A stretch of DNA of 64,000 nt, taken from the NCBI RefSeq assembly GCF_045037415.1, contig NZ_CP173438.1; one strand, 5' to 3'. Each line of letters starts with the position of its first letter. The stretch's first letter is position 1. Under the pieces are notes generated by a model, which saw only the letters and a program-made list of their open reading frames with translations, searched no databases and was not told the DNA's origin. Position numbers and translations under genes: made by a program. This DNA is from Escherichia coli (GTDB lineage Bacteria > Pseudomonadota > Gammaproteobacteria > Enterobacterales > Enterobacteriaceae). This document shows, piece by piece, positions 25,326-57,374 of the stretch.

Positions 25326-25760
25326 CAGTGTTTCTCCTTTCGCCCGCCAGAGTAAAAAGCAACCGTTTATGTTCATGAAACTGTCTAAACACATGCTCGT
25401 GGAGTGCCAGTTTTTGCGAGGAAGGGGAGTTAGAGACAGGAATTGCGGAGGCAATCACATAATCGTGGTTAAACCACGAAAATGAGAAGAGAACCTGACA
25501 ATGGAATTATCTGTAATTTTCTCATATTGATATTTCATTAATCATTCTGGCATGTCGCACTCTCGCATTTAATCGTTTTTATCTGGATAGCATTCTTTTG
25601 ATCGGCAATGTTGAAATAATGAAAGCGGCATAGATTGAGGGGCAATAATTTGAACTCAGTTGCAAAATTATAATTAAAACGGTCATGCTACCTAATATAT
25701 GCCCGTTTATTGCATCGCGAAATTTGAGAAGACATAACTCATTAAATGAAAGGGATGCAA

Positions 25761-30940: not shown

Positions 30941-32341
30941 TTAATCCATCTCTTCCGCTGAGGTAATACCAGGCAGAACGTTTTCCTGTCGGTAGCCACC
31001 AGGGAGGATAATATTTAATAAAATCGCAGTTAACCCGCCAGCACAAATAGGGTTTTCAACTAATACATAAATAGAGGCTGGCAATATTTTAAAAATTTCG
31101 GGATCGTAGGAGATACCAAGCCCTAAACCTAAAGAAGTGGCAACAATAAGCGTTTCACGGCGCTTTAAACCGTTGGTGATGATGATGCGAATCCCTGCGA
31201 TGGCAATCATGGAAAACATCAACGTCATTGCGCCTCCCAGAACTGCTGAGGGAATGGTCGTGAAGAAGCCGCCAATCATCGGAAATAAGCCGAGGATAAC
31301 CAGCATTACCGCGATGGTTCGCCCGACATAACGTGAAGCGACGCCAGTCATCTGAATAACCCCATTATTTTGCGCAAACGTGGTTAATGGTAATGAACCG
31401 ACAGCGGAGGCGATAACAGAAACCAGACCATCTGCCAGCACGCCGCCTTTCAGTCGGGACTGATACTCTTCCCCCTGAATGGGACGGCGGGAAACCATTG
31501 CCGTGGCGGTGATATCGCCGACAGCTTCCAGCACGCTAAGCAGATAAATCGTGCCAACCACCAGGAACTGATGGAAGCTAAAACTAAAGCCGTATTTGAA
31601 CGGATGCGGGATGGTGATTAACGGCAAATTGCGCATACTGCTGAAATCCACCATGCCCAGGCATAACGATGCGATATAGCCGACACATAGCCCAATGGCG
31701 ATCCCTCCCATGCGTAGCAACGGACTGCGACAGCAGTTAAAGCCGATCACCACAATCAAAACCAATAAACCAACGCCGAGATGTTCGTAATTGCCGAACG
31801 TACCGCTGCTTTTGGCTGCAAATCCTCCACCAAAATCAATAATGCCGACTTTAATCAGGCTTAAGCCGATCATCAGCACCACAATGCCGCTGACGGTAGG
31901 CGTAATAACCCGACGTAAATAGGGCAGGATAAAAGAAGAGCCGACAACCAGAAATGCGCCAACGAAGGAGACGCCGAGGAGCGACGACATGATTAACTCT
32001 TCGTGAAAACCGTCGCTTTTCATGCTGCTGCCCAGCGCAATCATGACCGTAACAAATGAAAAATTGACTGACTGAATTGAAAGTAAACCAGAACCGACGA
32101 TGCCGTAGCGGTTTACTTGTAACCAGGTACCAATACCAGAGGCGATCATCGCCATAGAAACAAGATAGGCAGTTGTTTCAGCGGAAAGCTGTAAGGCCGC
32201 ACCCACGATTAACGCGGGGGTTACCATCGGAACGAAAATTGCCAACAGATGGGTAATGGCACCTACGAGAGCCTGATGAAAGGGAGGGCGATCCTCCAGT
32301 TCAAATATAAGGTCAGAACCTGCATGGTTTATATCAGACAT
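30941..32341 (-). CDS. xanQ: Xanthine permease (NCS2/NAT family, YgfO)
   Basis: Track ORF 30941..32398; start MSDINHAGSDLIFELEDRPPF gives 466 aa. Confidence 0.9.
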   Translation of the reverse strand: MSDINHAGSDLIFELEDRPPFHQALVGAITHLLAIFVPMVTPALIVGAALQLSAETTAYLVSMAMIASGIGTWLQVNRYGIVGSGLLSIQSVNFSFVTVMIALGSSMKSDGFHEELIMSSLLGVSFVGAFLVVGSSFILPYLRRVITPTVSGIVVLMIGLSLIKVGIIDFGGGFAAKSSGTFGNYEHLGVGLLVLIVVIGFNCCRSPLLRMGGIAIGLCVGYIASLCLGMVDFSSMRNLPLITIPHPFKYGFSFSFHQFLVVGTIYLLSVLEAVGDITATAMVSRRPIQGEEYQSRLKGGVLADGLVSVIASAVGSLPLTTFAQNNGVIQMTGVASRYVGRTIAVMLVILGLFPMIGGFFTTIPSAVLGGAMTLMFSMIAIAGIRIIITNGLKRRETLIVATSLGLGLGISYDPEIFKILPASIYVLVENPICAGGLTAILLNIILPGGYRQENVLPGITSAEEMD

Positions 32342-32505
32342 CCCTTCACTCCTTTTAAAGTAAATTTGATCATCTGAATTAGTAAAATAAATTCCCACGA
32401 ATTTGGGGCGCAGGACGCCTTGAGAACGGCTTATCTCATTTTCGCAGTCACTATTTAGTCATCGTTCAAACAGAGAAACAGGCCGCCGAAGCGGCCATTT
32501 ATTAC

Positions 32506-35376
32506 TTATATTTTTTCCAGCGCGGTGAGTATTTTCTCCGGTGTGAAATGCCATTCGCGTAACCAGATGCCGCAGGCATCGTGAATTGCGGTAGCAATCG
32601 CCGGAGCTGCGCCATTTACACCGATTTCCGAGATCGATTTCGCCCCGAATGGGCCGACTTTATCGTCGCTCGGCACCAGCACAGCGCGGAAATCACGCGG
32701 AATGTCACCAATTTTCGGTGCGCCGTAACTGCGTAAATCACGCGTTAACGGGTGACCTTCGGCGTCATAAATGATCTCTTCGCTCATACTGTGGCCGATA
32801 GCACGCAGGGTGGCACCGTAGATTTGTCCCAACGCTAACTCTGGATTGACCGGTGTACCGCAGTCCAGCAAGGCGTAGAATTTATCCAGGCGGATTTCAC
32901 CCGTACGCGTGTTGACGGCAACTTCAGCGAAGTTTGCGCCATACGGGAAGGCGAAATCAGGTGTGATATAACTGCCAGTTCCCACCAGTGAACCAAAGCC
33001 GGTGCCGGTTTCGCCTTTATGGGCTATCTCTCCGAAACTAACTTCGCCTTTCTTGCCGCGAACGACGCCCGGCGTTGCTAGTTGAACATCTGCCACTGGC
33101 TCACCCAATATTTGCGCGCCGTGGAACAGGATTTTCTCCCGCAGATTTTCCGCTGCCAAACGCGCAGCGTTACCCGAGAAGCAAGTACCGGACGAGGCAT
33201 ATGCGCCTTTATCAAACAGTGCATGATCGGTATCACCAGAGATAACATGCACGTCCTGCGGTGGGCAGTGCAGCACTTCTGCTGCCAGTTTGGTCACCAC
33301 AGTATCCAGACCAGTACCAATATCCGCACCACCGGAATGAACGATAAAGGTGCCATCCGATTCCAGTTTGATCATGCAGTTAGCCTGATCGATATCCGGG
33401 ATACCCGATTTCTGCATGATAATGGCGACGCCGCGACCGATGTGCCAGTCACCATTTTGCGGTTTTGGTGAAGACCATTGGATCATCTCGCGACCCTGAC
33501 GCAGGATCTCTTCCAGTGCGCAGCTGGCGGCGGAAGGAACGGAGGTCGGCGCTTTACCTTCACCGATTGCACCGAGAATTTTCAGCTCTTGCCCTTCGTG
33601 TACCCGGTTACGTTCGATAATTTCCAGTTGGTCGATCTGTAACTGTTCAGCCAGTTCCGCTAATGCCATGGTGATAGCGAAGTTACCTTTCGGTGCGCCA
33701 TAACCCTGATAAGCACCATTTGGGCAAATGTTGCTGTAGTAGGTGGTGACCTGAAAATCGACGTTATCGCATGGATATAACGGCAGCGACAGCGCCGGTC
33801 CGTTACACGGTACGGTGAGTGAGTGGTTACCGTAAGGACCCGTGTTGGCGCGGAAATCCATCTTCACTGCCGTCAGGCGACCATCTTTTTTCGCGCCCAG
33901 TTTGACGGTGACTTTCGCGACGTGACGAGAGGTGTTAGCAATAAACTCTTCTTCACGGGTGTAGCGGAAAAGTACCGGACGCCCGGTCACGCAGGTTGCC
34001 CAGGCGCACACTTCTTCCAGCAGGATGTCCTGTTTGGAACCAAAACCGCCGCCAACTCGCTCTTTAATGACATGAACTTTATGCTGTTTCATGCCCACGA
34101 GGCGCGCGACCTGGCGGCGTAAGTGCCATGGTACCTGGGTGGAGGCGTGGATCACCAGACGATCGCCGTCCATACGGGTAAAGCAGATATGTGTTTCAGT
34201 CGGGCACTGCTGTGCCTGCGTTGAATTATAGGTTCGCTCAATGATCACATCGGCATCGGCAAAGCCTTTGTCCATATCGCCAATATGACCATGAATACTG
34301 GCGGCGATATTTTTGCGTGGGCGAGAACCGATCGGGAAGTTGATGATCATATGCTCGCCGCGCTGGGCTGCATGGCTGTTATCATCTTCCAGAGTATCTG
34401 GCGCACCAGCAACATACACCACCGGTTCATCGTGCACGACAGGCGCATCTTCCGCCATTGCCTCGTCAATCGACATTACCGGCTTAAGCACTTCATATTC
34501 AACGTCGATGAGCTTCAGTGCTTCGAGCGCAATGTCTTCACTTTCGGCTACTACCGCAGCAACGCGATCGCCGACGTGACGCATTTTCTTGCCGAACATT
34601 CGGCGGTCAAGCGGTGACGGTTCCGGTGCGCTCTGACCACCCGGGGTATAGTAAATATCCGGGCAATTCAGGTGAGTAATAACGTGAACGACGCCCGGTA
34701 AGGCTTCAGCTTTGCTGACATCCAGATGAGTAATCAGTGCGTGAGCGTGTGGGCTACGTAACATTTTAATGACGCAGGCGTCAGCCGTTACGCGATCTTC
34801 AACATAGCAGGGTTTCGCCTGCACCATTTTCGCGGCATCAGTTTTAGGATAATGCTTGCCAATGACTTCAAGGTCGTCACGGAAAGTCGGAGCGATATCA
34901 ATGGTGGCCTGCGGATTATTTTTACGTGCAACCGCCAGTTCAATGACCTGATAGTATTGCTGCCAGCCAGCATCGCGGCTAAACAGACCTGAGAGTGCGT
35001 CGTCGATCTCTTCGCGGGTAGGTGCGTCGATGCGATCGAGAAGATCGGTGATAATCAGAGCCGCAGCTGGATCGTTATAACCAGACTGCACCACGCCAAC
35101 ATCAACCATGGCCTGTTGAACCAGACTTAACTCATTCCATTTGCCCAGAGATTCTGCGGTACGAATATCTGCCTTCTCTAACTGTGCGGCGATAAGCAAG
35201 GACGCGTTAACGATATTACCGTTAAAGATAATTGCGTCAGAACCGGCAAACCCAAAGCCATCATCACTGTTGCGTACAGAGTGCATTCCCATGTTAAACA
35301 ACAGCTTTTGCACGTTTTCGCCTGGATTAACGGTTAGCTCCTGAGGCGCGCCATTTAAAGTAAAGTGGATGATCAT
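32506..35376 (-). CDS. xdhD: Molybdopterin-dependent hydroxylase, large subunit (putative selenium-dependent; YgfN)
   Basis: 956-aa ORF with N-terminal 2Fe-2S-like region and C-terminal aldehyde-oxidase/xanthine-dehydrogenase Mo-binding domains. Confidence 0.9.
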   Translation of the reverse strand: MIIHFTLNGAPQELTVNPGENVQKLLFNMGMHSVRNSDDGFGFAGSDAIIFNGNIVNASLLIAAQLEKADIRTAESLGKWNELSLVQQAMVDVGVVQSGYNDPAAALIITDLLDRIDAPTREEIDDALSGLFSRDAGWQQYYQVIELAVARKNNPQATIDIAPTFRDDLEVIGKHYPKTDAAKMVQAKPCYVEDRVTADACVIKMLRSPHAHALITHLDVSKAEALPGVVHVITHLNCPDIYYTPGGQSAPEPSPLDRRMFGKKMRHVGDRVAAVVAESEDIALEALKLIDVEYEVLKPVMSIDEAMAEDAPVVHDEPVVYVAGAPDTLEDDNSHAAQRGEHMIINFPIGSRPRKNIAASIHGHIGDMDKGFADADVIIERTYNSTQAQQCPTETHICFTRMDGDRLVIHASTQVPWHLRRQVARLVGMKQHKVHVIKERVGGGFGSKQDILLEEVCAWATCVTGRPVLFRYTREEEFIANTSRHVAKVTVKLGAKKDGRLTAVKMDFRANTGPYGNHSLTVPCNGPALSLPLYPCDNVDFQVTTYYSNICPNGAYQGYGAPKGNFAITMALAELAEQLQIDQLEIIERNRVHEGQELKILGAIGEGKAPTSVPSAASCALEEILRQGREMIQWSSPKPQNGDWHIGRGVAIIMQKSGIPDIDQANCMIKLESDGTFIVHSGGADIGTGLDTVVTKLAAEVLHCPPQDVHVISGDTDHALFDKGAYASSGTCFSGNAARLAAENLREKILFHGAQILGEPVADVQLATPGVVRGKKGEVSFGEIAHKGETGTGFGSLVGTGSYITPDFAFPYGANFAEVAVNTRTGEIRLDKFYALLDCGTPVNPELALGQIYGATLRAIGHSMSEEIIYDAEGHPLTRDLRSYGAPKIGDIPRDFRAVLVPSDDKVGPFGAKSISEIGVNGAAPAIATAIHDACGIWLREWHFTPEKILTALEKI

Positions 35377-36152
35377 ACGGCTTCCTCCCCAGCCTGTTGG
35401 CAGTCGGCATACAGGTCGGCTACCAGAACTCCCGTGATATAGCGTTTATAGGCCACGCTGCCCCGCAAATCTTCCTGCGGGAAAATGGCGTTGGCGACAG
35501 CCTGTTCCAGTGCATTGCCTTCCAGATTTTGAGTTTCAACATCATGCAGACGCAGTGCTTTACTGGCGACGCCATCCAGCGCAATTCGCATACCGTCGTG
35601 GTCTGTTATTGCAACGGCTGCCGTCACGACGGTTAAACCTGCCTGAGAACGGCTAATTTTGCGAGTCGCACAGGTGCGATACGGATCTTTAATGATAATT
35701 TCGGTTAACAGGCGATCGCATGGGCAGGCCAGGTAGTCCTCGATTGACAGCGTTTCGCCGTTGCCAAAAACCAGTTCAGCATCCAGTGCCAGCAGGACGG
35801 GAAGCAGCACTGACTCTTCTTGCCGGGCGGCAATTTCACCACCAATGGTCGACTGATTACGAACATGGCGAGAGTAGACAAAACCGAGAGCTTCCCGCAG
35901 TGCTGCAGGAATAAATCGCGCATCACGCAGTGGCTGCAAGCGAGACATTGCGCCAATTCGTAGTGCACCGTTATCCCAGTCAATCCAGTCCAGCTCCAGA
36001 TCCTGCAAGGAAATGGCAATCTTTTTATCGGTACGGGTTGGTGTAGCGTTGAGTTTGCTGCCCCCGGCGAACCAGACGGCTTCATCCTGGTAGCGGCGCT
36101 TCAGTTCCAGCGCCTGTTCGACAGAGTCGGGTCTGAAAAATTGTTCAATCAT
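35373..36152 (-). CDS. ygfM: FAD-binding subunit of molybdenum hydroxylase (CO-dehydrogenase medium-subunit-like)
   Basis: 259-aa ORF MIEQFFRPDSVEQALELKRRYQDEAVWFAGGSKLN...; stop overlaps the xdhD start by 4 nt. Confidence 0.88.
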   Translation of the reverse strand: MIEQFFRPDSVEQALELKRRYQDEAVWFAGGSKLNATPTRTDKKIAISLQDLELDWIDWDNGALRIGAMSRLQPLRDARFIPAALREALGFVYSRHVRNQSTIGGEIAARQEESVLLPVLLALDAELVFGNGETLSIEDYLACPCDRLLTEIIIKDPYRTCATRKISRSQAGLTVVTAAVAITDHDGMRIALDGVASKALRLHDVETQNLEGNALEQAVANAIFPQEDLRGSVAYKRYITGVLVADLYADCQQAGEEAV

Positions 36153-36202
36153 CGTCTTTCCTTAATTTCCCCTCTTCTCTGAAAGAAGAGGGGAGCTGTT
36201 AT

Positions 36203-37531
36203 TTATGCCAGCGCATCCATCCGACGCCACATACTGGCAGCGGCTTTTCTGGCTTGCGCATAAATGGAATCGCAATCGAAGTTAAACTGACGGTCTTCAT
36301 AGACCATCACACCATTGACCATCACGCTGTGAACGCTACCTGAGCCCATACCGAAAGCGATATGCCCGGCGATATTGTCTGCCAGCAGCGGCGTCGGCGA
36401 GTTGTAATCGCAAATGGTTAAATCGGCTTTGTAACCGGCTTCCAGAAGCCCAAATTTCGCGCCAAAGTTGCGGCTCATCAGTTCGTTGCCGTTAGCCAGT
36501 GCTTTGGCAAAACTGTCAGGCCACAGCGGGCCACCCGCATCGCGATGTTTAAAGAAGGCAAATTTCATCTCTTCAAACATGTCCGAACCAATGCCGTCCG
36601 TTCCCAACGCCAGATTGCGGATGTCGCTAAGGTGATGGTTGTAGCCGACATGGTTGTTCATGTTTGAACGGGCGTTATGCACCAGGAACGCATCGCGCTG
36701 ATTGAGTAGGACGATGTCATCTTTCGACAGGTACAGCCCATGAGCGACCAGCGTTTTGCTGTCGATGAGATCGAATTGCGCAAGTCGTGCCAGCAGGTCT
36801 TTGCCGTACCAATGGTGACTGTAGGAAACGTCGTAAAGGTCTTCCGCAACGTGAATATGCAAACCACGACCTGTGCTTTTCACGGCTTCACGCAGCATCT
36901 CCAGACCGGCATCCGGCACGGTAAACGGCGCGTGAGCGCCGATATGTGCTTCCACCAGATACGGCTCGGTTGCTGCTTTCTTCGCCTCATCAATCTGACG
37001 GGTGAAGCGGATGTTTTCTTCTACACCTTCCTGCAACTCTTTGATGCCGTTGTTACGGTCAGTAGTTTCAAAACAGGTCATCGCGCGCAGGCCAACTTTT
37101 AAAAATGCGTTGCGCAATGTGGAGAGCGACCCGTCGATATACGCCGGAGAGGCATGGTGATCGATAACCGATGTACATCCGCTCTTAATCGCTTCCAGGG
37201 AACAAATCAGTCCGCTGTAATAGAGCGACTCTTCATCAAGAGCGCGATCGAGCCGCCACCAGAGATTTTTCAGCGTTGAGATGAAATCCGGGCAGGGGGC
37301 GATGTTTGCCATAATTCCGCGGGAAAGCCCCGAGTAAAAATGGTTGTGCGAGCAGACAATTCCCGGCATCACAATCCGACCATGCATCTCTTTGTAGCTG
37401 GCATCGGGGTAGCGTTGCGTCAGGGCATCGCCGATAGCGACAATCACATCATTTTCGATGGCGATATCAACGCCTTCCTGCACTTTCGCCGGGTGTAACT
37501 GCACTGCGGTGACATTCTTCAGAATCAACAT
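36203..37531 (-). CDS. ssnA: Putative aminohydrolase SsnA (amidohydrolase superfamily)
   Basis: 442 aa; metal-binding HxH motif (GIVCSHNHFYSG). Confidence 0.9.
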   Translation of the reverse strand: MLILKNVTAVQLHPAKVQEGVDIAIENDVIVAIGDALTQRYPDASYKEMHGRIVMPGIVCSHNHFYSGLSRGIMANIAPCPDFISTLKNLWWRLDRALDEESLYYSGLICSLEAIKSGCTSVIDHHASPAYIDGSLSTLRNAFLKVGLRAMTCFETTDRNNGIKELQEGVEENIRFTRQIDEAKKAATEPYLVEAHIGAHAPFTVPDAGLEMLREAVKSTGRGLHIHVAEDLYDVSYSHHWYGKDLLARLAQFDLIDSKTLVAHGLYLSKDDIVLLNQRDAFLVHNARSNMNNHVGYNHHLSDIRNLALGTDGIGSDMFEEMKFAFFKHRDAGGPLWPDSFAKALANGNELMSRNFGAKFGLLEAGYKADLTICDYNSPTPLLADNIAGHIAFGMGSGSVHSVMVNGVMVYEDRQFNFDCDSIYAQARKAAASMWRRMDALA

Positions 37532-37533
37532 GA

Positions 37534-40500
37534 TTACACCTCCACGCGGCCCAGCAGATAATGATGATGCTGGTGGACATGGCTAATGATGCGGCACATA
37601 TCGTTCAGCTCCGGTGGTACGTTGTTGAACTGACCTTCGCTGTCGATGTTTAACACCCAGCTTTGGTTATTCAGACGTACGCGTACCCGGCAATCTTCCA
37701 CAAGGAAGCCTGGGTTACTGCTGTTATCAAAGTCTTGCGACAGGCTGAAGACGGTGATTTTGTCTTTGTACGGTTTACCGTTCCACGGGCAGAATTGGGC
37801 GCAGTTGCCGCATTCGTTGCAGTAGGCATCGAGATGCAGCGTCTGGAAACGGTTCTGGAAGCCAGGAACCGCAATGGATACGTTGGCGCGGTTCGGGCAG
37901 ACATCCACACACTTGCTGCAAACGTAGTTACATTCAAGGCAGCGTGCGGCTTCCTGTGCGACAAACGCGTCACGATCGTCACTGTTCACCAGAGTGACAG
38001 AGATATCGCCTTTACGTTGATAGATTTCCGCCGGATTTACGTTGTTCCAGTATTTATCGTTCTGGTGGGAACGGATATTTTCCCGACTAAGGATGGTATC
38101 GGTCGCCCGACGCGCGGTTCCGACAGCAGCGACAATGGAGGATGGTCCGCGCTGTACGTCGCCGATCATAAAGACGTCAGTCAGACGCGTTTCGCCATTA
38201 TGGTCGACGTCTGGCCAGCCGTTTTTGTCCAGCGGCACGCCCATCGCATTCAGGGCTTCAGTATCCTGCTGTTCACCAATGGCGGTGATCAGACTGTCCA
38301 CATGCAGTGTTACTGTTTCGTTGGTTTCAACCGGACGGCGACGACCTTTCTCATCAGGTTCGCCAAGCGACATAACGCGCAAGGTTAAGGTGCCATCAGC
38401 ATCGAAACGTTCCGGATTATTCAGAAAACGGAACTCCACGCCGTCGTGCAACGCTTCTTCATACTCTTCGCGCCATGCGGGCATTTCTTGCAGTGAACGA
38501 CGGTAAACGACCGTTGCTTTTTCTACGCCTGGAACGCGTAACGCCGCACGAGCGCAGTCCATTGCGGTGTTACCCGCCCCGACAACGACCACATGTTTGC
38601 CCAGCTTGAGCGCGGTGCCCTTGTTGTATTCACGCAGGAAAGGGAGTGATTTCCAGACATTTTGGTTGTCGCCCGCCAGTTTCACACCGCTATTTTTATC
38701 AGTGCCGGTGGCAATCAGAACATAGTGGAAGCCCTGATTTTTTAACTGTTCAACGGTCAAATCGGGTGAGCAACCGTACTCAAATTTCACGCCGTGAGCG
38801 GCAACAAAATCGATATCGTGCTGAATTAACTCTGCAGGAATACGGAACTGAGGAATGATATTTTTCACCACGCCGCCCGCATTGGCTTCGCGTTCAAACA
38901 GCGTGACCGGATGGCCCGCTCTGGCAAGGAAGTAACCTGCGGCCAGACCCGCCGGACCTGCACCAATCACGGCTACCGGATGGCGTGAACCGGAACCGGC
39001 TGGTTTGTGCCAGCGTTGCTTATATTCATCCCAACCTTTTTCCAGGGCGACTTTTTTCAGTTCGCGGATATTCAGCGCACTGTCGTAATCCAGGCGGGTA
39101 CAGTTGTATTGGCACTGGTGATCGCAAATATGACCGGTAATGGCGGGCAGGGCGTTGCGTTGATAGATGAGTTCCAGCGCGTCGGCATAGCGGTGTTCGC
39201 CAAGCAGACGGATGTATTCCGGAATATCTTGCTTGATAGCGCAGGCAGTAACACAGGGGGCAACGTAGCAATCGGTCAGCGGCAGGTCTTCAGCCACTTC
39301 AATACGCTCTTCTGGCTTCCAGTGTTTCTGGGTGTATTCCATGGTTAACGCGTCTGCTGCCAGTCTGTTCAGTCGTTCGACGTCAACGTGGTTAAGCTCC
39401 CAGGCGTCGGAGCCTTCCAGCTCGCGCATGCAGGCACTTAAGCGCAGATAGCCGCCAGGTTTCAGCAGGTCGGTTGCCATAGTAATAGGGCGAATACCAG
39501 TATCAAAAATATCGCGGATAGTCAGCTGACTGGCACCACCGGAATAAGAAATGGGCAGTTTGCCGTCAAAGGCGCGAGAGAGAACTGCTGCAACGTTGAT
39601 GGAGAGCGGGAACAGCGCACGGCCTGACATATACATCTCTTCACCGGGCAGTGCGCCTTTATTGTTGATGGTGCCGAGAGTGTTAGTCAGTTTTACGCCA
39701 AAGCCGAGTGATTTTTCTTTTGCCAGTGCCATCAGGCGTTCCAGCATTTCCAGTGCTTGCGTCAGCTTGAGGTCGTGATCAAATGACTCTTCTTTTAAGC
39801 CGATGTAACCGAAACCGCAGACATCGAGGATCTCACGAACACGCGCGTACCCCAGTAAGGTCGGGTTGAGTTTCACAAAGGTGTTGAGTCCTTTTTCTTC
39901 CAGCATGTAGCGGCAAATGGCTTCGATTTCATGCGGAGGACAGCCGTGCATGGTGGAGAGGGTAACACCTTGTACCATGCTGGTGGGGATGCGAGCGGGT
40001 AAGGCTTGCAAGCTTTCGCGTTTTTCCTGCAATCCGTGGCGGGCTAAAAATGCCTCATCCTGGAGTAGCTTATTAAGTGCATCGCGGTATTGAGCGAATT
40101 TCGGATGGTCAGATGCGTCCATCATATTGTCGATGAACTGCTGCATCGGCGGTTGCTTAATACCTTCGAGGTTGTAACCGACGCTCATATTAAAGATGAA
40201 CGATTTACCGGAATCAGAAGGCTGGAACATCGCTTCGAGAAGGTGCAGGGCAAACCAGGCTTTGAGGTATTCATCCCAGGCTTTAAGCAGGGTAAATTCG
40301 GTAGACCATTCGGTGTTAAAGCACTCGTCTTCGGCATCGATACAGGGCTTTTCCAGCTCCAGACGGTCAAGAATTTGGACGGTTTTTAGTTCGATGAAGC
40401 GTCCGCCAGTCAGCCAGGAAGTGACAATATTTTGCGCGAGTTGCGTGTGCGGGCCAGCGGCAGGGCCGACGGGAGTGGCACAGGTTTCACCGAAGACGCT

Positions 40501-40632
40501 AACAGTTTTACTTTTTACGGGTGAGTAAAACTGTTGCTCGGGAATACCAAAGATTGAGCGTTGTTGTTGGTATTCATCAAATATGCGCGTCAAAAGTTCC
40601 TCAAACGGAATGGGACGCATAATATCCCCCAT
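37534..40632 (-). CDS. ygfK: Fe-S flavoprotein oxidoreductase YgfK (putative selenate reductase component)
   Basis: 1032 aa; dinucleotide fold [14 protein letters not shown]; C-terminal cysteine cluster CLECNYVCSKCVDVCP; 2-nt spacing to ssnA. Confidence 0.9.
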   Translation of the reverse strand: MGDIMRPIPFEELLTRIFDEYQQQRSIFGIPEQQFYSPVKSKTVSVFGETCATPVGPAAGPHTQLAQNIVTSWLTGGRFIELKTVQILDRLELEKPCIDAEDECFNTEWSTEFTLLKAWDEYLKAWFALHLLEAMFQPSDSGKSFIFNMSVGYNLEGIKQPPMQQFIDNMMDASDHPKFAQYRDALNKLLQDEAFLARHGLQEKRESLQALPARIPTSMVQGVTLSTMHGCPPHEIEAICRYMLEEKGLNTFVKLNPTLLGYARVREILDVCGFGYIGLKEESFDHDLKLTQALEMLERLMALAKEKSLGFGVKLTNTLGTINNKGALPGEEMYMSGRALFPLSINVAAVLSRAFDGKLPISYSGGASQLTIRDIFDTGIRPITMATDLLKPGGYLRLSACMRELEGSDAWELNHVDVERLNRLAADALTMEYTQKHWKPEERIEVAEDLPLTDCYVAPCVTACAIKQDIPEYIRLLGEHRYADALELIYQRNALPAITGHICDHQCQYNCTRLDYDSALNIRELKKVALEKGWDEYKQRWHKPAGSGSRHPVAVIGAGPAGLAAGYFLARAGHPVTLFEREANAGGVVKNIIPQFRIPAELIQHDIDFVAAHGVKFEYGCSPDLTVEQLKNQGFHYVLIATGTDKNSGVKLAGDNQNVWKSLPFLREYNKGTALKLGKHVVVVGAGNTAMDCARAALRVPGVEKATVVYRRSLQEMPAWREEYEEALHDGVEFRFLNNPERFDADGTLTLRVMSLGEPDEKGRRRPVETNETVTLHVDSLITAIGEQQDTEALNAMGVPLDKNGWPDVDHNGETRLTDVFMIGDVQRGPSSIVAAVGTARRATDTILSRENIRSHQNDKYWNNVNPAEIYQRKGDISVTLVNSDDRDAFVAQEAARCLECNYVCSKCVDVCPNRANVSIAVPGFQNRFQTLHLDAYCNECGNCAQFCPWNGKPYKDKITVFSLSQDFDNSSNPGFLVEDCRVRVRLNNQSWVLNIDSEGQFNNVPPELNDMCRIISHVHQHHHYLLGRVEV

Positions 40633-40953
40633 AACCCTCTCCTTAGCTTATACAGATATCATTGAGTGACCGGTGTTGAGAAATCCGGTGGTTTAGGGGG
40701 ATAGAGCAACAATCGCACCACTCTTGCCAGGTTTGACGGGAAATATAAAAAAATGTGAGGCGGCTCGAAACTTAATGGCTTTTTGTGAATGAACTCACAG
40801 GTGCCAAATGAGAATTAAAATCACTCCTGAAAATTATTATTGCCAGCCCATTTATCACTTTTTCTCTTTTCTCAAAATCAGTGATTCCTTATCATTATGA
40901 TAAAGAGTGCTGGAGGGATTAAATATTTGAACGCAATCGTTTAACTACGTTTT

Positions 40954-41532
40954 CTAAATTTCAGTATACCTTTTCTTCGCTGTAATAAAGTCGTCCGGAG
41001 TATCAATATCTAAAATTATTTCTGCATTTTCTATTTCGACGGAATAATGTTCTCCCATAAGGAGTGCCTGACGCATATTGGTGACATTGGGGCGCTGGAT
41101 TGCCTGCATCAGGCATGGTTTTGACACTAAAATCGGATGGCCGGGGATGCCATTATGGAGTGGCAGTATTGCGCCATCATTTCGTAACGACCAGATTTTT
41201 CTAAAAATATCGATGGTGAGGGTTGGCATATCTCCGTGGGTGAGAAAACAATGTTCTGTTTGCACCGCGGGTACTGCGGCCTTTACTGATGTCAGTAAAC
41301 CCTGCGCATAATCTGGGTTGTGGATAATAGTGATATTGCTCTGGTTCGCATAACGTTCGTGCAGTTCATTACCACGATAGCCGGTGACTAAAATAATTCG
41401 GCTACAAAACTGCAACGCATTTTTGATACTTGTATCAAGAATTGTTCCCTGTTGCCAGGGTAACATCATTTTCCATTGCCCCATTCTTGATGATAATCCT
41501 GCGGCGGTAATTATACAGTCGATGGCTGACAT
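40954..41532 (-). CDS. mocA: Molybdenum cofactor cytidylyltransferase (YgfJ)
   Basis: 192-aa ORF MSAIDCIITAAGLSSRMGQWKMMLPWQQG...; nucleotidyltransferase G-rich loop. Confidence 0.9.
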   Translation of the reverse strand: MSAIDCIITAAGLSSRMGQWKMMLPWQQGTILDTSIKNALQFCSRIILVTGYRGNELHERYANQSNITIIHNPDYAQGLLTSVKAAVPAVQTEHCFLTHGDMPTLTIDIFRKIWSLRNDGAILPLHNGIPGHPILVSKPCLMQAIQRPNVTNMRQALLMGEHYSVEIENAEIILDIDTPDDFITAKKRYTEI

Positions 41533-47749: not shown

Positions 47750-47806
47750 TATTTTTCTCCAGATTTTTTACTCCCCGTTTTGCAGGGAGCAGTTCCAATA
47801 GGGTGA

Positions 47807-49060: not shown

Positions 49061-50251
49061 TTATTTCACGCGTTCTTGCGCTTCTTTCAGCAGTTGCTCG
49101 AGCAGTGCACCTGGTTTGGCGTATTTACGGGACAGGATCATCGCGGCGATGATATAAGGCTTCCAGCTGGCTTCTTTGTAGGTAGCGATACGGTATTTTT
49201 CGAATACGCCTTCAGTCACTTCACCTTCTTTGCAGGATACGCCGCTGATATCAGCTGGCAGGCAGTGCATGTACAGGGCTTCGCCATCACGGGTCAGCTC
49301 CATCATCTCTTCGGTACAATGCCAGTCTTTGTGCTGTGCGTTCTGTGCCAGACACTGTTTTTCCAGCGCTTTCAGTCCTTCGTGATCGTTCGCACGCAGC
49401 AGTTCAGTACGCTCTTCCATCACTTTGTAAGGTGCCCAGGACTTCGGATAAACGATGTCTGCGTCTTTGAAGGCTTCTTCCATGCTGGTGACCTGACGGA
49501 AGCTACCACCGGAGGCTTTAGCATTGTTTTTAGCAACTTCAACGACATCCGGGATCAGGTCGTAGCCTTCCGGATGGGCCAGGGTGACATCCATACCGAA
49601 GCGGGTCATCAGACCGATGATGCCTTGTGGTACAGAGAGCGGTTTGCCATAGCTTGGGGAGTAGGCCCAGGTCATGGCGATTTTTTTACCTTTCAGGTTT
49701 TCCAGTGAACCAAAGTGTTCACGTAACCATGCCAGATCAGCCATTGATTGAGTCGGGTGGTCAATATCGCATTGCAGGTTCACTAAAGCCGGACGCTGCG
49801 GCAGCACACCCTGCTTGTAACCGTCATCAAGTGCAGCGCCAACTTCACGCATATAGGCGTTGCCTGCGCCCAGATACATATCGTCGCGAATACCGATAGC
49901 GTCAGCGCAGAAGGAGATCATATTGGCGGTTTCACGCACGGTTTCGCCGTGAGCGATTTGTGATTTACCTTCGTCAAGATCTTGTTGTGCAAGGCCGAGC
50001 AGGTTAAGCGCGGAAGCATAAGAGAAGCGGGTACGGGTGGAATTGTCGCGGAATACGGAAATACCTAATCCACTATTAAAGACTTTGGTTGAGATGTTTT
50101 CAGCACGCAGTGCTTTTAACGCGGCGGCAACGTCCAGTACTTGTTTCAGTTCGTCTGGCGTCTGTTCCCACGTTAACAAAAAATCTTTTTCATGCAGGTG
50201 AGAGGTCAGCGAATTGATATCCTTAATCAGCTCATTAACAGTTTTCATCAT
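49061..50251 (-). CDS. ygeW: Carbamoyltransferase-family protein YgeW
   Basis: 396 aa; ATCase/OTCase-like fold with STRTR motif (RDNSTRTRFSYASA). Confidence 0.9.
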   Translation of the reverse strand: MMKTVNELIKDINSLTSHLHEKDFLLTWEQTPDELKQVLDVAAALKALRAENISTKVFNSGLGISVFRDNSTRTRFSYASALNLLGLAQQDLDEGKSQIAHGETVRETANMISFCADAIGIRDDMYLGAGNAYMREVGAALDDGYKQGVLPQRPALVNLQCDIDHPTQSMADLAWLREHFGSLENLKGKKIAMTWAYSPSYGKPLSVPQGIIGLMTRFGMDVTLAHPEGYDLIPDVVEVAKNNAKASGGSFRQVTSMEEAFKDADIVYPKSWAPYKVMEERTELLRANDHEGLKALEKQCLAQNAQHKDWHCTEEMMELTRDGEALYMHCLPADISGVSCKEGEVTEGVFEKYRIATYKEASWKPYIIAAMILSRKYAKPGALLEQLLKEAQERVK

Positions 50252-50726
50252 AAAGTCCCGATAGTGGAATGACAGGCAAAGTGGTTTATTTCACTGTGAC
50301 GTGCCAAAGTGATTGGTGTTTTCACAGCTATACCTCGGACTAACAATAAGTGTGCCAGAATTATCCACGCGGCTGCGAAAGGCTAATTTGACGGATAATG
50401 TGTGGGGTTGATCACATATTGATGCCAGTTTCCGGTTGTTTGTAAAATACGAAAACGTTTGGCTTTTTTTATTACGTTATTTATTTGCTGCTAAGTATCA
50501 GAAATAAGATAAAGAGGCAGGCTATCTCTCTTCAGTTTGATAAACTTGCCGCTGTAATTCTCATATTGATATAGAAATGTGATATCTCTTCCATAATTTT
50601 ATTAGAAAGTGATAAAAATCTTATGTTTTTATCAAAGCCAATTTCGCCTGAGTTAATATCATCATGATCTGTGAACCATCAACGTCTTCAATGATCGACT
50701 TTTAAGTAAGTCTGGAAGGTAAAGCT

Positions 50727-56166: not shown

Positions 56167-56618
56167 GCATGATTCACCCGTAGCGGTTGCTTCCCGCGCT
56201 TCCATAGAAATCCCCTCGGTTTGAACATTTGGTTCTTATGGCAAAGATTTAGTCTTAGCAGGCAAGAATTACGCCAGAAACGACTATATGCGTGAGGGGA
56301 GGAAGGAAGTGTGATGACGTTAAAAAAACACAGATATGATACGAAACAGGACTCTGAATAGGGACAGTGATACGTATCAATATGAGTGGCGATAAAATCA
56401 ATGTGATAAATTAGGATTATTACGCATCAAGGTGGGAAATAGGGTAAAAGTCAGGAAATTCGATACCACTACAGCAAATATTTTGCTGATGATACTTCCC
56501 TTTGCCAAATGAAATTAACCTCTTTCTCTATTACATCGTTTTTCCAGAAGCAAGAGATTGGGTATCAAGAGGCTGGCTGCTATGATATGGCGTCTTGTTT
56601 TTTAAGCGAGGAAAGATT

Positions 56619-57374
56619 TTGAGTGCGGGACGCCTGAATAAAAAATCTCTGGGTATCGTGATGTTGTTATCGGTTGGACTGCTTTTGGCGGGCTGTTCGG
56701 GTAGCAAATCATCCGATACAGGAACGTATTCCGGCTCCGTTTACACCGTGAAACGGGGGGATACGCTATATCGTATTTCGCGCACCACGGGAACCAGCGT
56801 AAAAGAACTGGCGCGACTGAACGGCATTTCCCCCCCTTACACCATTGAAGTAGGTCAGAAACTAAAACTGGGTGGGGCGAAAAGTAGCAGTAGTACACGT
56901 AAATCAACCGCCAAATCCACGACCAAAACCGCATCGGTTACACCGTCATCAGCGGTACCGAAATCTTCCTGGCCGCCAGTAGGGCAACGTTGTTGGTTAT
57001 GGCCAACGACAGGGAAAGTTATCATGCCGTATTCGACAGCAGATGGCGGCAATAAAGGGATTGATATCTCAGCTCCACGAGGTACACCTATTTACGCCGC
57101 GGGTGCAGGAAAGGTGGTGTATGTGGGCAACCAGCTGCGTGGCTACGGTAATCTCATCATGATTAAACACAGTGAAGATTACATTACGGCTTACGCTCAT
57201 AATGACACGATGCTGGTAAATAATGGGCAAAGCGTGAAGGCTGGGCAAAAAATCGCCACTATGGGGAGCACTGATGCGGCATCTGTTCGCCTGCATTTCC
57301 AGATTCGTTACCGTGCAACGGCAATTGATCCGCTACGTTACTTGCCGCCTCAGGGCAGCAAGCCAAAATGCTGA
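56619..57374 (+). CDS. ygeR: LysM / M23-peptidase-domain lipoprotein (septal murein hydrolase activator)
   Basis: Track ORF 56595..57374; likely TTG start (RBS gaggaaag) giving 251 aa; lipobox LLAGCSG; C-terminal M23 (LytM) domain. Confidence 0.88.
   Translation: MSAGRLNKKSLGIVMLLSVGLLLAGCSGSKSSDTGTYSGSVYTVKRGDTLYRISRTTGTSVKELARLNGISPPYTIEVGQKLKLGGAKSSSSTRKSTAKSTTKTASVTPSSAVPKSSWPPVGQRCWLWPTTGKVIMPYSTADGGNKGIDISAPRGTPIYAAGAGKVVYVGNQLRGYGNLIMIKHSEDYITAYAHNDTMLVNNGQSVKAGQKIATMGSTDAASVRLHFQIRYRATAIDPLRYLPPQGSKPKC

Follow-up and report, generated by a model that had tools for sequence, protein, structure and literature searches.

The ygfK-ssnA-ygfM-xdhD unit of Escherichia coli: two tight gene pairs separated by a hairpin spacer in a probable single operon of urate degradation

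Escherichia coli breaks down uric acid anaerobically by a pathway known as reductive, 2,8-dioxopurine or 'yanthine' uric-acid degradation, and the enzymes of its first three steps are encoded by an already characterised locus, namely, ygfK-ssnA-ygfM-xdhD (b2878-b2881 in strain K-12). The biochemistry of all four products was reported in 2025 by Li et al. (PMC12507026) and in a Dodd-lab preprint (10.1101/2025.04.24.650524). XdhD, a fused [2Fe-2S] and molybdopterin subunit, catalyses the 6-dehydroxylation of urate and, with YgfM, the FAD-binding subunit of the same reductase, yields 2,8-dioxopurine (activity and delta-xdhD phenotype in Li et al. 2025, PMC12507026). YgfK is the NAD(P)H-dependent reductase of 2,8-dioxopurine, and SsnA, an amidohydrolase, then opens the ring of the reduced purine in a step akin to that of PydB (both activities in PMC12507026 and 10.1101/2025.04.24.650524). 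These enzyme activities and the co-purification of XdhD with YgfM were established by others; what the present analysis shows is the anatomy of the gene junctions, the modularity of the unit across taxa, the persistence of an intergenic hairpin and the DPD-like fold predicted for the N-terminus of YgfK.

The window that we analysed, a stretch of 64,000 nucleotides, is part of an E. coli chromosome (100% identity to E. coli chromosomes) and contains this unit; gene content, gene order, junctions and the sigma-54 site agree with those of K-12 (Li et al. 2025, PMC12507026). The first-pass annotation had assigned all four genes to the minus strand, transcribed as ygfK-ssnA-ygfM-xdhD, and its interval, 32506-40632, runs exactly from the xdhD stop to the ygfK start in both the ORF list and RefSeq (Table 1). 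At least 80% of the region is present in 5168 of 5426 complete genomes, and the proteins differ from their K-12 versions by 3-13 residues. On the whole, we consider it likely that this is the known urate-degradation unit, organised as one probable transcript with two modules and a hairpin spacer, in which XdhD and YgfM make up a two-subunit enzyme.

Table 1. Positions of genes, junctions and putative signals of the unit within the window
Feature	Coordinates	Strand	Size	Description and source
xdhD	32506-35376	minus	956 aa	ORF list; RefSeq annotation of identical E. coli record
ygfM	35373-36152	minus	259 aa	ORF list; RefSeq annotation of identical E. coli record
ssnA	36203-37531	minus	442 aa	ORF list; RefSeq annotation of identical E. 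coli record
ygfK	37534-40632	minus	1032 aa	ORF list; RefSeq annotation of identical E. coli record
Terminator-like element	32468-32496	minus		After xdhD; GGCCGC-uucg-GCGGCC, then UGUUUCUCUGUUU; consensus scan and fold z = -2.6; putative function
ygfM/xdhD junction	35373-35392	minus		xdhD Shine-Dalgarno GGGAGGAA within ygfM; ATGA, 4-nt stop/start overlap
ssnA-ygfM spacer	36153-36202	minus	50 nt	Hairpin, then ygfM Shine-Dalgarno AAGGAAAG
Hairpin in ssnA-ygfM spacer	36168-36194	minus		Perfect 12-bp stem-loop
ygfK/ssnA junction	37529-37545	minus		ssnA Shine-Dalgarno GGAGGT in last ygfK codons, then TAA-tc-ATG; 2-nt gap
Sigma-54 promoter element	40705-40721	minus		GTGGTGCGATTGTTGCT; upstream of ygfK; identical to ChIP-seq site OS31
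Candidate CRP site	40784-40799	minus		TGTGAgttcatTCACA; perfect match to CRP consensus half-sites

Profile searches bore out the protein types assigned earlier, namely, a large flavoprotein with Fe-S clusters for YgfK, an amidohydrolase for SsnA, and, for YgfM and XdhD, the two parts of a molybdenum hydroxylase that carry FAD and Mo/Fe-S, respectively. All four full-length proteins score far above the curated cutoffs of the NCBIfam families TIGR03312-03315 (of the kinds equivalog, subfamily and hypoth_equivalog). XdhD (TIGR03313, 2116.7 bits against a cutoff of 1101.9) contains PF01799, the a/b hammerhead PF01315 and the molybdopterin-binding PF02738 and PF20256, all above cutoff, and its N-terminus aligns with XdhC-type Fe-S subunits. 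YgfM (TIGR03312, 487.6 bits, cutoff 241.5) carries the FAD-binding domain PF00941 (73 bits, cutoff 27), and the CO-dehydrogenase flavoprotein C-terminal domain PF03450 falls just below its cutoff (22.2 against 25.5 bits); the nearest solved chains are the FAD subunits of CODH and nicotinate dehydrogenase. Together, the two proteins show the features that define the xanthine dehydrogenase family, that is, Mo-binding, a/b hammerhead and [2Fe-2S] domains and a FAD_binding_5 subunit. That they form a complex is supported, because tagged XdhD co-purifies with a band of ~30 kDa, taken to be YgfM (Li et al. 2025, PMC12507026), and because an AlphaFold3 ipTM of 0.94 is given for the pair in a published commentary. 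SsnA contains PF01979 and scores 737.6 bits against TIGR03314 (cutoff 455.5).

YgfK (TIGR03315, 1778.8 bits, cutoff 835.3) includes a GltD-like module that consists of Fer4_20 (PF14691, 60 bits) and the FAD/NAD(P)-binding Pyr_redox_2 domain (PF07992, 147 bits), and the PDB matches of residues 436-889 include NfnA, GltD and DPD. For residues 1-450, searches of Pfam and PDB sequences gave no match; the AF2 model of this region, however, is of high quality (pLDDT 88.7, pTM 0.90), and its best Foldseek matches are pig dihydropyrimidine dehydrogenase and DHODH (E ~1e-9, probability 1.0, TMq ~0.48, 14-16% identity). The model thus suggests, at the level of the fold only, an FMN TIM barrel of the type of DPD domain IV and DHODH, with FMN binding as a prediction. 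The resulting domain order is an FMN-barrel-like region (1-440), Fer4_20 (453-532), Pyr_redox_2 (552-839) and a Cys-rich C-terminus, the conserved Cys motifs of which correspond to two [4Fe-4S] motifs. An older annotation, by which YgfK, YgfM and XdhD (YgfN) would be subunits of a selenate reductase, was listed by Haft and Self (2008) and survives in the RefSeq name of YgfK ('putative selenate reductase subunit') and in NCBIfam family names (Se_ygfK, Se_sel_red_*). We regard it as exceedingly improbable given that the activity of YgfK neither needs nor is stimulated by selenate (10.1101/2025.04.24.650524), that defined purine substrates and mutant phenotypes account for the genes (PMC12507026), and that the link to selenium more likely lies in a Mo cofactor that depends on selenium and is produced through the yqeB/yqeC genes nearby.

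The unit had initially been described as one translationally coupled operon with a 2-nt gap and a 4-nt overlap at successive junctions. Both distances are found in the sequence, at ygfK/ssnA and ygfM/xdhD, respectively, but the junctions are not successive: the 50-nt spacer between ssnA and ygfM lies between them. The single transcript remains probable in view of the sigma-54 site, the iModulon and the terminator-like hairpin, whereas an unbroken chain of coupling is not supported, given the hairpin spacer. Termination-reinitiation coupling is possible within each tight pair, and each gene of the set is preceded by its own strong Shine-Dalgarno sequence. Local folds at the two tight junctions are no more stable than those of shuffled sequences (z = +0.69 for ygfK/ssnA and +1.73 for ygfM/xdhD). 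Gaps of 5 nt or less occur in 6 of the 20 same-strand neighbour pairs of a 40-kb annotated stretch, so the tight pairs are an ordinary signature of operons and not a statistical oddity.

The first-pass annotation did not mention the ssnA/ygfM junction or its hairpin. Folded alone, the spacer reaches -20.2 kcal/mol (z = -4.1), and in a 76-nt context the hairpin reaches -25.3 kcal/mol (z = -4.8). Of the two E. coli alleles of the spacer, the window has the rarer one (1195 genomes at >=99% identity versus 3972 at ~92%), which differs from the majority allele of K-12 in 11 of 50 bases; this is the most divergent 50-nt segment of a 9.3-kb region (22% versus 2-3% elsewhere). The hairpin is retained in both E. 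coli alleles, with two base pairs of the stem changed on both sides. These seemingly 'compensatory' changes are supported by four alleles and could also have arisen by template-switch mutagenesis at the palindrome. Other spacers of 40-100 nt in these clusters commonly hold hairpins too (Mann-Whitney p = 0.08), so the ssnA-ygfM hairpin is not special in this respect. As a Rho-independent terminator, the element was rejected: the 12-bp stem is present but, in our reading of both alleles, is not followed by a U-tract on the sense strand (its 3' flank reads AAAUUAAGG in the window and UUAAAUAAGG in K-12), and a consensus scan flags the element on the opposite strand only. The hairpin could, however, end a fraction or even most of the transcripts.

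How the four genes are transcribed can be judged from several lines of evidence. Site OS31, identified by sigma-54 ChIP-seq (Bonocora et al. 2015), lies 62 nt upstream of ygfK, so that the first gene is preceded by a -24/-12 element, and ygeV, the gene of an enhancer-binding protein, is annotated ~10 kb away. On the minus strand, a consensus scan found no sigma-70-like site from the ygfK/ssnA junction to ygfM. The YgeV iModulon includes all four genes, ygfK is among the listed CRP genomic-SELEX targets, and glucose represses urate degradation (Li et al. 2025, PMC12507026). Because a sigma-54 site lies upstream, no sigma-70-like site was found within, the iModulon is shared and a terminator-like hairpin follows xdhD, the genes are probably co-transcribed as a single operon, including across the ssnA-ygfM hairpin. 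The alternative is that this hairpin ends a ygfK-ssnA transcript and that ygfM and xdhD have a promoter of their own, located within ssnA or after it. Such an arrangement would fit the situation in Kluyvera, Enterobacter, Serratia, Pluralibacter and Cedecea, where ssnA closes the gene set and a stem-loop comes after it (4 of the 6 loci also show a U-run), as well as that in Edwardsiella and Hafnia, which have a strong hairpin with a short T-run at the same ssnA-ygfM junction; ygfM also has its own Shine-Dalgarno sequence, and Li et al. used a plasmid to express tagged xdhD 'under its native promoter' (PMC12507026), which, depending on the insert, might point to an internal promoter. In E. coli, however, the stem is followed by GGGGAAAUUAAGG, with no U-tract, the consensus scan shows no sigma-70-like site on the minus strand upstream of ygfM, and within the iModulon the expression of ygfM and xdhD follows that of ygfK and ssnA. 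The main text of Bonocora et al. (2015), which likewise weighs against separate units, does not mention ssnA, ygfM or xdhD. Thus, we judge two transcription units distinctly unlikely.

Comparison of 79 SsnA loci showed that [ygfK-ssnA] and [ygfM-xdhD] are two separable, independent modules. In 54 loci, ygfK is directly upstream of ssnA, and in the 48 pairs whose query coverage was 50% or more the median gap is 2 nt (20 nt or less in 43); ygfM and xdhD are adjacent in 25 loci, with a median gap of -4 nt (20 nt or less in 24 of 25). By contrast, the order of all four genes, with true adjacency of ssnA and ygfM, occurs in only 8 loci, where the gap is 40-80 nt and never an overlap, and the commonest gene after ssnA is ygeY (29 loci).

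The original suggestion that stoichiometric coupling reflects a multi-enzyme complex is not supported by these observations. In its full form, one coupled message would ensure fixed stoichiometry of a four-protein complex in which YgfK feeds electrons or substrates to XdhD-YgfM and SsnA. It is compatible with the tightness of two of the three junctions, the co-regulation of all four genes, the consecutive steps performed by the three enzymes and the requirement, in one study, of SsnA for the detection of the YgfK product. Nevertheless, such a complex appears very improbable. Two tight pairs split by a 50-nt hairpin spacer do not look like the genes of one four-protein machine; the XdhD pull-down yielded one partner band, of ~30 kDa, with a 115-kDa YgfK band unreported (PMC12507026); YgfK and SsnA, each purified on its own, show activity once combined, the pathway was rebuilt from separate enzymes, and in a second study YgfK was active alone (10.1101/2025.04.24.650524). 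Moreover, the four-gene order is rare, six enterobacterial loci have ygfK-ssnA without adjoining ygfM-xdhD, and C. difficile possesses XdhD without YgfM and UacX in place of YgfK (PMC12507026).

A more limited proposal is that YgfK and SsnA alone constitute a transient or stable channelling pair, in which the unstable dihydro-2,8-dioxopurine is handed directly from reductase to hydrolase. Theirs is the most conserved adjacency of the pathway, and in the E. coli cluster the other tight junctions join the genes of two subunits of one enzyme (xdhC/xdhB) or of putative partners (ygfT/ygfS), whereas other single enzymes are set apart by spacers of 47-57 nt; this pattern slightly favours contact between YgfK and SsnA. 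In the assays of Li et al. (2025, PMC12507026), the YgfK product was seen only when SsnA was present, which could reflect physical coupling instead of the thermodynamic pull to which these authors attribute it. However, YgfK alone makes UA-3 (10.1101/2025.04.24.650524), and each protein was affinity-purified alone, with the partner unreported (PMC12507026; 10.1101/2025.04.24.650524). Furthermore, in spirochaete loci, hyuA-ygfK-ssnA-ygeY are all linked by 4-nt overlaps and no complex among their products is reported in the pathway literature examined, so tight junctions alone do not predict complexes and the tightness, which extends to hyuA/ygfK and ssnA/ygeY, is a style of the lineage. Taken together, these facts make channelling between YgfK and SsnA rather unlikely.

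The reading that we prefer, a single operon of two modules, implies the following course of events. Transcription would most likely start at the sigma-54 promoter, with the neighbouring YgeV as its presumed activator and CRP as a presumed modulator, and would proceed, with read-through of the spacer hairpin, across all four genes to the terminator-like hairpin after xdhD. Each evolutionary and translational module has a stop/start junction that would allow termination-reinitiation coupling; the stem-loop of the spacer is probably an mRNA-stability or attenuation element and, with it lying between the modules, expression of the two halves could depart from 1:1. XdhD (Mo/Fe-S) and YgfM (FAD), as a two-subunit enzyme of the xanthine dehydrogenase family, carry out the NADH-driven removal of the 6-oxo group of urate. 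YgfK, a probable single-chain, domain-permuted relative of DPD, dearomatises 2,8-dioxopurine with electrons from NAD(P)H, which would travel by way of its Fe-S clusters and flavins, and SsnA hydrolyses the reduced ring.

Among known systems, the clostridial clusters (C. sporogenes with XdhAC, and C. difficile as described above) share the chemistry and SsnA as the marker gene but differ in the electron-input modules and partners, which indicates that the four E. coli proteins are no obligate set. The reductive pyrimidine (Pyd) pathway, with PydA/dihydropyrimidine dehydrogenase and PydB/dihydropyrimidinase, follows the same logic, namely, NAD(P)H/flavin/Fe-S-dependent reduction of a uracil-like ring and then opening by an amidohydrolase, although here the substrate is a purine. 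Like DPD, YgfK has a GltD-like Fer4_20/FAD module and, as predicted by the model, the N-terminal fold of the DPD FMN barrel; unlike in DPD (Fe-S, FAD, NADPH, FMN, Fe-S), the order is permuted, with the FMN barrel first, and the barrels have no sequence-detectable similarity. SsnA, for its part, is closer to amidohydrolases of the chlorohydrolase/deaminase type than to hydantoinases. XdhD and YgfM have the domain set and cofactors of E. coli XdhABC, R. capsulatus XDH, CO dehydrogenase (CoxLMS) and 4-hydroxybenzoyl-CoA reductase. Members of this family whose FAD subunit is a chain of its own form stable heteromers, and their subunit genes overlap by 4 nt, as do xdhC/xdhB in this window. In XdhD, the Fe-S and Mo subunits are fused, giving two genes in place of three, and, in contrast to its relatives, XdhD-YgfM runs reductively under physiological conditions, dehydroxylating urate at C6, and probably depends on selenium.

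The gene calls and gene order of the first-pass annotation are borne out by the six-frame ORF list and by the names in the RefSeq annotation of an identical record, and both of its junction measurements hold on reading the sequence, namely, a 2-nt gap between ygfK and ssnA (TAA-tc-ATG) and a 4-nt overlap between ygfM and xdhD (ATGA). These tight junctions are not, however, successive as had been described: between them lies the third junction, ssnA/ygfM, a 50-nt gap that bears a stem-loop. Tight junctions are, moreover, ordinary for operons, with gaps of at most 5 nt in 6 of the 20 same-strand neighbour pairs of a 40-kb annotated stretch, so the observation is only partly confirmed. In a megablast search of complete E. 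coli genomes, the segment 32506-40632 is 100% identical to several chromosomes, and at least 80% of it is present in 5168 of the 5426 genomes; 242 genomes yield no match, and one carries a plasmid copy. At the ygfK start (40618-40632, ATGGGGGATATTATG), the Shine-Dalgarno sequence AAGGAG lies 6 nt ahead of the first ATG, and Met1 and Met5 are both invariant among 30 homologues, so either could be the true initiation codon.

Genes, predicted stem-loops and regulatory sites, in window coordinates
Feature	Position	Strand or location	Details	Source
xdhD	32506-35376	minus	956 aa	six-frame ORF list
ygfM	35373-36152	minus	259 aa	six-frame ORF list
Stem-loop in ssnA-ygfM spacer	36168-36194	minus (sense)	perfect 12-bp stem	fold prediction
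ssnA	36203-37531	minus	442 aa	six-frame ORF list
ygfK	37534-40632	minus	1032 aa	six-frame ORF list
OS31, sigma-54 site	40705-40721	minus	exact sequence GTGGTGCGATTGTTGCT	sequence match in window
Putative CRP half-site pair	40784-40799	upstream of ygfK	TGTGA-N6-TCACA, perfect consensus	sequence match
ygeW-to-arcC spacer without stem-loop	45053-45099			fold
ygeW-to-arcC spacers with stem-loop	46486-46537, 47750-47806, 49004-49060			fold

For comparison across genomes, diverse SsnA representatives were aligned, 79 SsnA loci were fetched from 100,044 species genomes, and the neighbouring ORFs were named by BLASTP against 22 E. coli cluster proteins, a pair being counted if coverage of the E. coli protein was 50% or more for each of its two genes. 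The ygfK gene is directly upstream of ssnA in 54 of the 79 loci, with a median gap of 2 nt in the 48 pairs measured (at most 20 nt in 43, including 19 overlaps), and the ygfM-xdhD gap, measured in 25 loci, has a median of -4 nt and is at most 20 nt in 24. The true ssnA-ygfM junction, found in eight four-gene loci (from Edwardsiella, Aeromonas, Hafnia, Arsenophonus and a Rhodocyclaceae MAG), spans 40-80 nt and never overlaps. The gene that most commonly follows ssnA is ygeY (29 loci). The series ends with ssnA in Kluyvera, Enterobacter, Serratia, Pluralibacter and Cedecea, where a stem-loop (at ~11320-11500 in each of loci L005, L006, L007, L009, L011 and L015, with a U-run in four of the six) and then convergent ygfS-ygfT come after it. 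In spirochaetes, 4-nt overlaps chain hyuA-ygfK-ssnA-ygeY, and ygfM-xdhD is found at a distance of several genes, after a GuaD-like amidohydrolase. These junction gaps and gene orders across the 79 loci argue that the E. coli four-gene set consists of two juxtaposed modules, ygfK-ssnA and ygfM-xdhD, each internally tight. Junction tightness by itself implies no complex; here, it tracks module membership.

In E. coli, Edwardsiella, Hafnia and Aeromonas, unlike in the five genera that end with ssnA and lack ygfM-xdhD there, ~7.5 kb (ygfM-xdhD-xanQ-guaD-ghxQ) separates ssnA from ygfS, so that the boundary between the modules shows an insertion or deletion polymorphism. The distant amidohydrolase that precedes ygfM-xdhD in spirochaetes (L025:9806-11179, L039:10749-12125, L033:8954-10345 and L036:13662-15062 in the compared loci) does so with gaps of -7 to +10 nt and is 25-27% identical to GuaD or SsnA, which suggests a deaminase-YgfM-XdhD three-gene module. 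In an E. coli ST69 locus (L084:1-4000, NZ_CP102488.1), a Mu-like prophage (Mor activator, gp16 family) interrupts the 3' end of ssnA, and ygfM-xdhD is intact downstream, without read-through from ygfK-ssnA. A 618-aa protein from a Logan assembly (P0019), 97% identical to SsnA and containing both PF01979 and PF00941, appears to be an SsnA-YgfM fusion, possibly the product of a frameshift, a deletion or an assembly artefact.

A sigma-54 ChIP-seq site, OS31, is located 62 nt upstream of ygfK (Bonocora et al. 2015; ssnA, ygfM and xdhD are not mentioned in the main text of that paper), and its exact sequence recurs here. A search for the sigma-54 pattern over the whole window gave 48 matches vs 44 expected; the pattern alone is thus uninformative, and only ChIP-seq-supported sites count. 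The putative CRP half-sites fit the identification of ygfK as a CRP SELEX target and the repression of urate degradation by glucose (Li et al. 2025, PMC12507026). All four genes belong to the YgeV iModulon, together with xdhABC, ygeWXY, hyuA, ygfT and uacT. A consensus scan for sigma-70 promoters and terminators detected no minus-strand sigma-70-like site from the ygfK/ssnA junction to ygfM, although this absence is weak evidence because promoter-like sites were not above chance (11 vs 9.4); directly 3' of xdhD, the scan and folding identified a GC-rich hairpin with a U-rich tail. In Li et al. 2025, plasmid-borne xdhD was expressed from its 'native promoter', which might, depending on the insert, imply an internal one. 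The most economical reading is one operon extending from the ygfK promoter to the hairpin after xdhD, and the single operon originally proposed is, on the strength of OS31, the common iModulon, the lack of an internal sigma-70-like site and the terminal hairpin, probable. Upstream of ygfK (40633-40953), there is also a perfect palindrome, TTATCAT-A-ATGATAA (40889-40903), and TATCA/TGATA is enriched in the regions upstream of ygfK, ygeW, xdhA and ygfT (40633-40953, 50249-50726, 56207-56619 and 25326-25760), with 19 copies in 1647 nt vs 5.8 +/- 2.4 in shuffled sequences, a count reached in none of 2000 shuffles; the xdhA upstream region carries TGATACGTATCA. The motif is a candidate enhancer through which the sigma-54 activator YgeV might act.

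The continuous chain of translational coupling that had been proposed for the operon is not supported. The ssnA and ygfM genes are 50 nt apart, and ssnA, xdhD and ygfM each have a strong Shine-Dalgarno sequence of their own (GGAGGT, GGGAGGAA and AAGGAAAG, respectively). Folding around the ssnA and xdhD starts is no better than that of shuffles (z = +0.69 and +1.73), with no sign of occlusion of the ribosome-binding site at either. Termination-reinitiation is plausible.

The ssnA-ygfM spacer folds strongly, at -20.2 kcal/mol alone (z = -4.1) and -25.3 kcal/mol in a 76-nt context (z = -4.8). A 161-nt probe of this junction separates E. coli into two allele groups, with 1195 genomes at 99% identity or above and 3972 at ~92%. 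Compared to a K-12 derivative, 11 of the 50 spacer positions differ (22%), vs 2.2-3.1% divergence in coding DNA and 0.6-2.2% in other intergenic regions, making the spacer (36153-36202; compare L085:4084-4133) the most divergent 50 nt within 9.3 kb. A 10-12-bp hairpin is nevertheless kept in both alleles, with the stem CCCCTCTTCT/AGAAGAGGGG here vs CCCTCTTCCC/GGGAAGAGGG in K-12; in a comparison of four alleles, 93.6% of cells are paired and two pairs are altered on both sides. Such apparent compensatory change could be mimicked by template-switch mutation at a palindrome. At the same junction, Edwardsiella and Hafnia have unrelated strong hairpins (z = -4 to -5), and the spacers of Aeromonas, Rhodocyclaceae and Arsenophonus fold indistinguishably from shuffles.

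As for the identity of this hairpin, an intrinsic terminator was rejected because no U-tract follows the E. coli stem on the sense strand. An Rfam scan of 32000-41200 returned one chance-level match (narK RNA, E = 0.99); the hairpin belongs to no described RNA family. Neither is it exceptional among 44 other same-strand spacers of 40-100 nt, which fold nearly as well (p = 0.08). The downstream pathway genes ygeW-ygeX-ygeY-hyuA-arcC have spacers of a uniform 47-57 nt between them, and clear 8-9-bp GC-rich stem-loops occur in three of these four (two with z < -2.7); the notion of a unique regulatory element was dropped on these grounds. A UUUUU run follows the ygeY-hyuA stem-loop. Hairpins seem to punctuate the entire cluster, and the spacer hairpin is probably a generic intercistronic stem-loop of the cluster, 3'-end-protecting or weakly attenuating. 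The only tight junctions in the cluster are xdhC/xdhB, ygfT/ygfS, ygfM/xdhD and ygfK/ssnA.

The four-enzyme complex suggested by the first-pass annotation is not supported, given the two separable modules and the reconstruction of the pathway by sequential addition of separately purified enzymes (Dodd-lab preprint, 10.1101/2025.04.24.650524). YgfM-XdhD is the one pair for which a complex is supported: a ~30 kDa band, taken to be YgfM, co-purifies with tagged XdhD (Li et al. 2025, PMC12507026), and a commentary reports an AlphaFold3 ipTM of 0.94 for this heteromer. Of the four proteins, an E. coli interactome preprint mentions XdhD alone, in a predicted pair with PaoC; an NrdR proteome paper and a colony-ageing paper have no bearing on how the operon is built. 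A residual possibility is that YgfK passes the unstable dihydro-2,8-dioxopurine to SsnA, the two acting as a channelling pair. The conserved ygfK/ssnA junction (2 nt; elsewhere -4 to +20 nt) would then reflect a physical or kinetic partnership, and the spacer hairpin might be a differential-expression device that, through 3'-end protection or partial attenuation, sets the YgfK-SsnA to XdhD-YgfM ratio. The adjacency of ygfK and ssnA is exceptionally conserved, the genes that meet at the other tight junctions in the E. coli cluster encode presumed partners or subunits of a single enzyme, and in one report the YgfK product was seen only with SsnA (Li et al. 2025, PMC12507026), but the two proteins have been purified separately, and E. 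coli YgfK, given NADPH but no partner enzyme, is reported to turn 2,8-dioxopurine into the next intermediate (Dodd-lab preprint, 10.1101/2025.04.24.650524). On balance, we consider this joint scheme of channelling and ratio setting unlikely; were it correct, operon punctuation would encode which enzymes pair up. The correction that emerges from this analysis is modest, namely, that the gene set is two modules rather than one machine, but for pathway engineering it presents ygfK-ssnA and ygfM-xdhD as separable cassettes, with the intercistronic hairpin to be kept in mind when expression ratios are rebuilt.

The locus and its function are already known and recently characterised. In earlier work, these genes had been linked to selenium-dependent molybdenum hydroxylases as well as to induction by urate and its consumption. 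XdhD-YgfM reduces urate to 2,8-dioxopurine, YgfK and SsnA together convert this product to ureidomethyl-hydantoin, and delta-xdhD and delta-ygfK mutants show the expected phenotypes (Li et al. 2025, PMC12507026); the same pathway was reached in the Dodd-lab preprint, where selenate proved irrelevant (10.1101/2025.04.24.650524). The locus starts the anaerobic removal of uric acid by gut bacteria, as established in 2023-2025, with relevance to gout and engineered probiotics.

All four proteins score far above the cutoffs of NCBIfam TIGR03312-03315, and Pfam detects [2Fe-2S], a/b hammerhead and two molybdopterin-binding domains in XdhD, FAD_binding_5 in YgfM, Amidohydro_1 in SsnA, and Fer4_20 and Pyr_redox_2 in the middle of YgfK. 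None of the four has a solved structure. The nearest solved relatives are the large chains of 4-hydroxybenzoyl-CoA reductase, aldehyde oxidoreductase and CO dehydrogenase for XdhD, the FAD subunits of CO dehydrogenase and nicotinate dehydrogenase for YgfM, and NfnA, GltD and dihydropyrimidine dehydrogenase (DPD) for the YgfK middle. For residues 1-450 of YgfK, neither Pfam nor PDB gave a match at the sequence level, and a profile of 30 sequences did no better; a confident AlphaFold2 model of this region built on the 30-sequence alignment (pLDDT 88.7, pTM 0.90) has as its top Foldseek matches pig dihydropyrimidine dehydrogenase and class-2 dihydroorotate dehydrogenases (E ~1e-9, probability 1.0), and the C-terminal 190 residues retain two ferredoxin-type Cys motifs. 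YgfK is thus a single-chain, domain-permuted analogue of DPD/PydA, and the modelled match lends independent support to the structural claim of Li et al.
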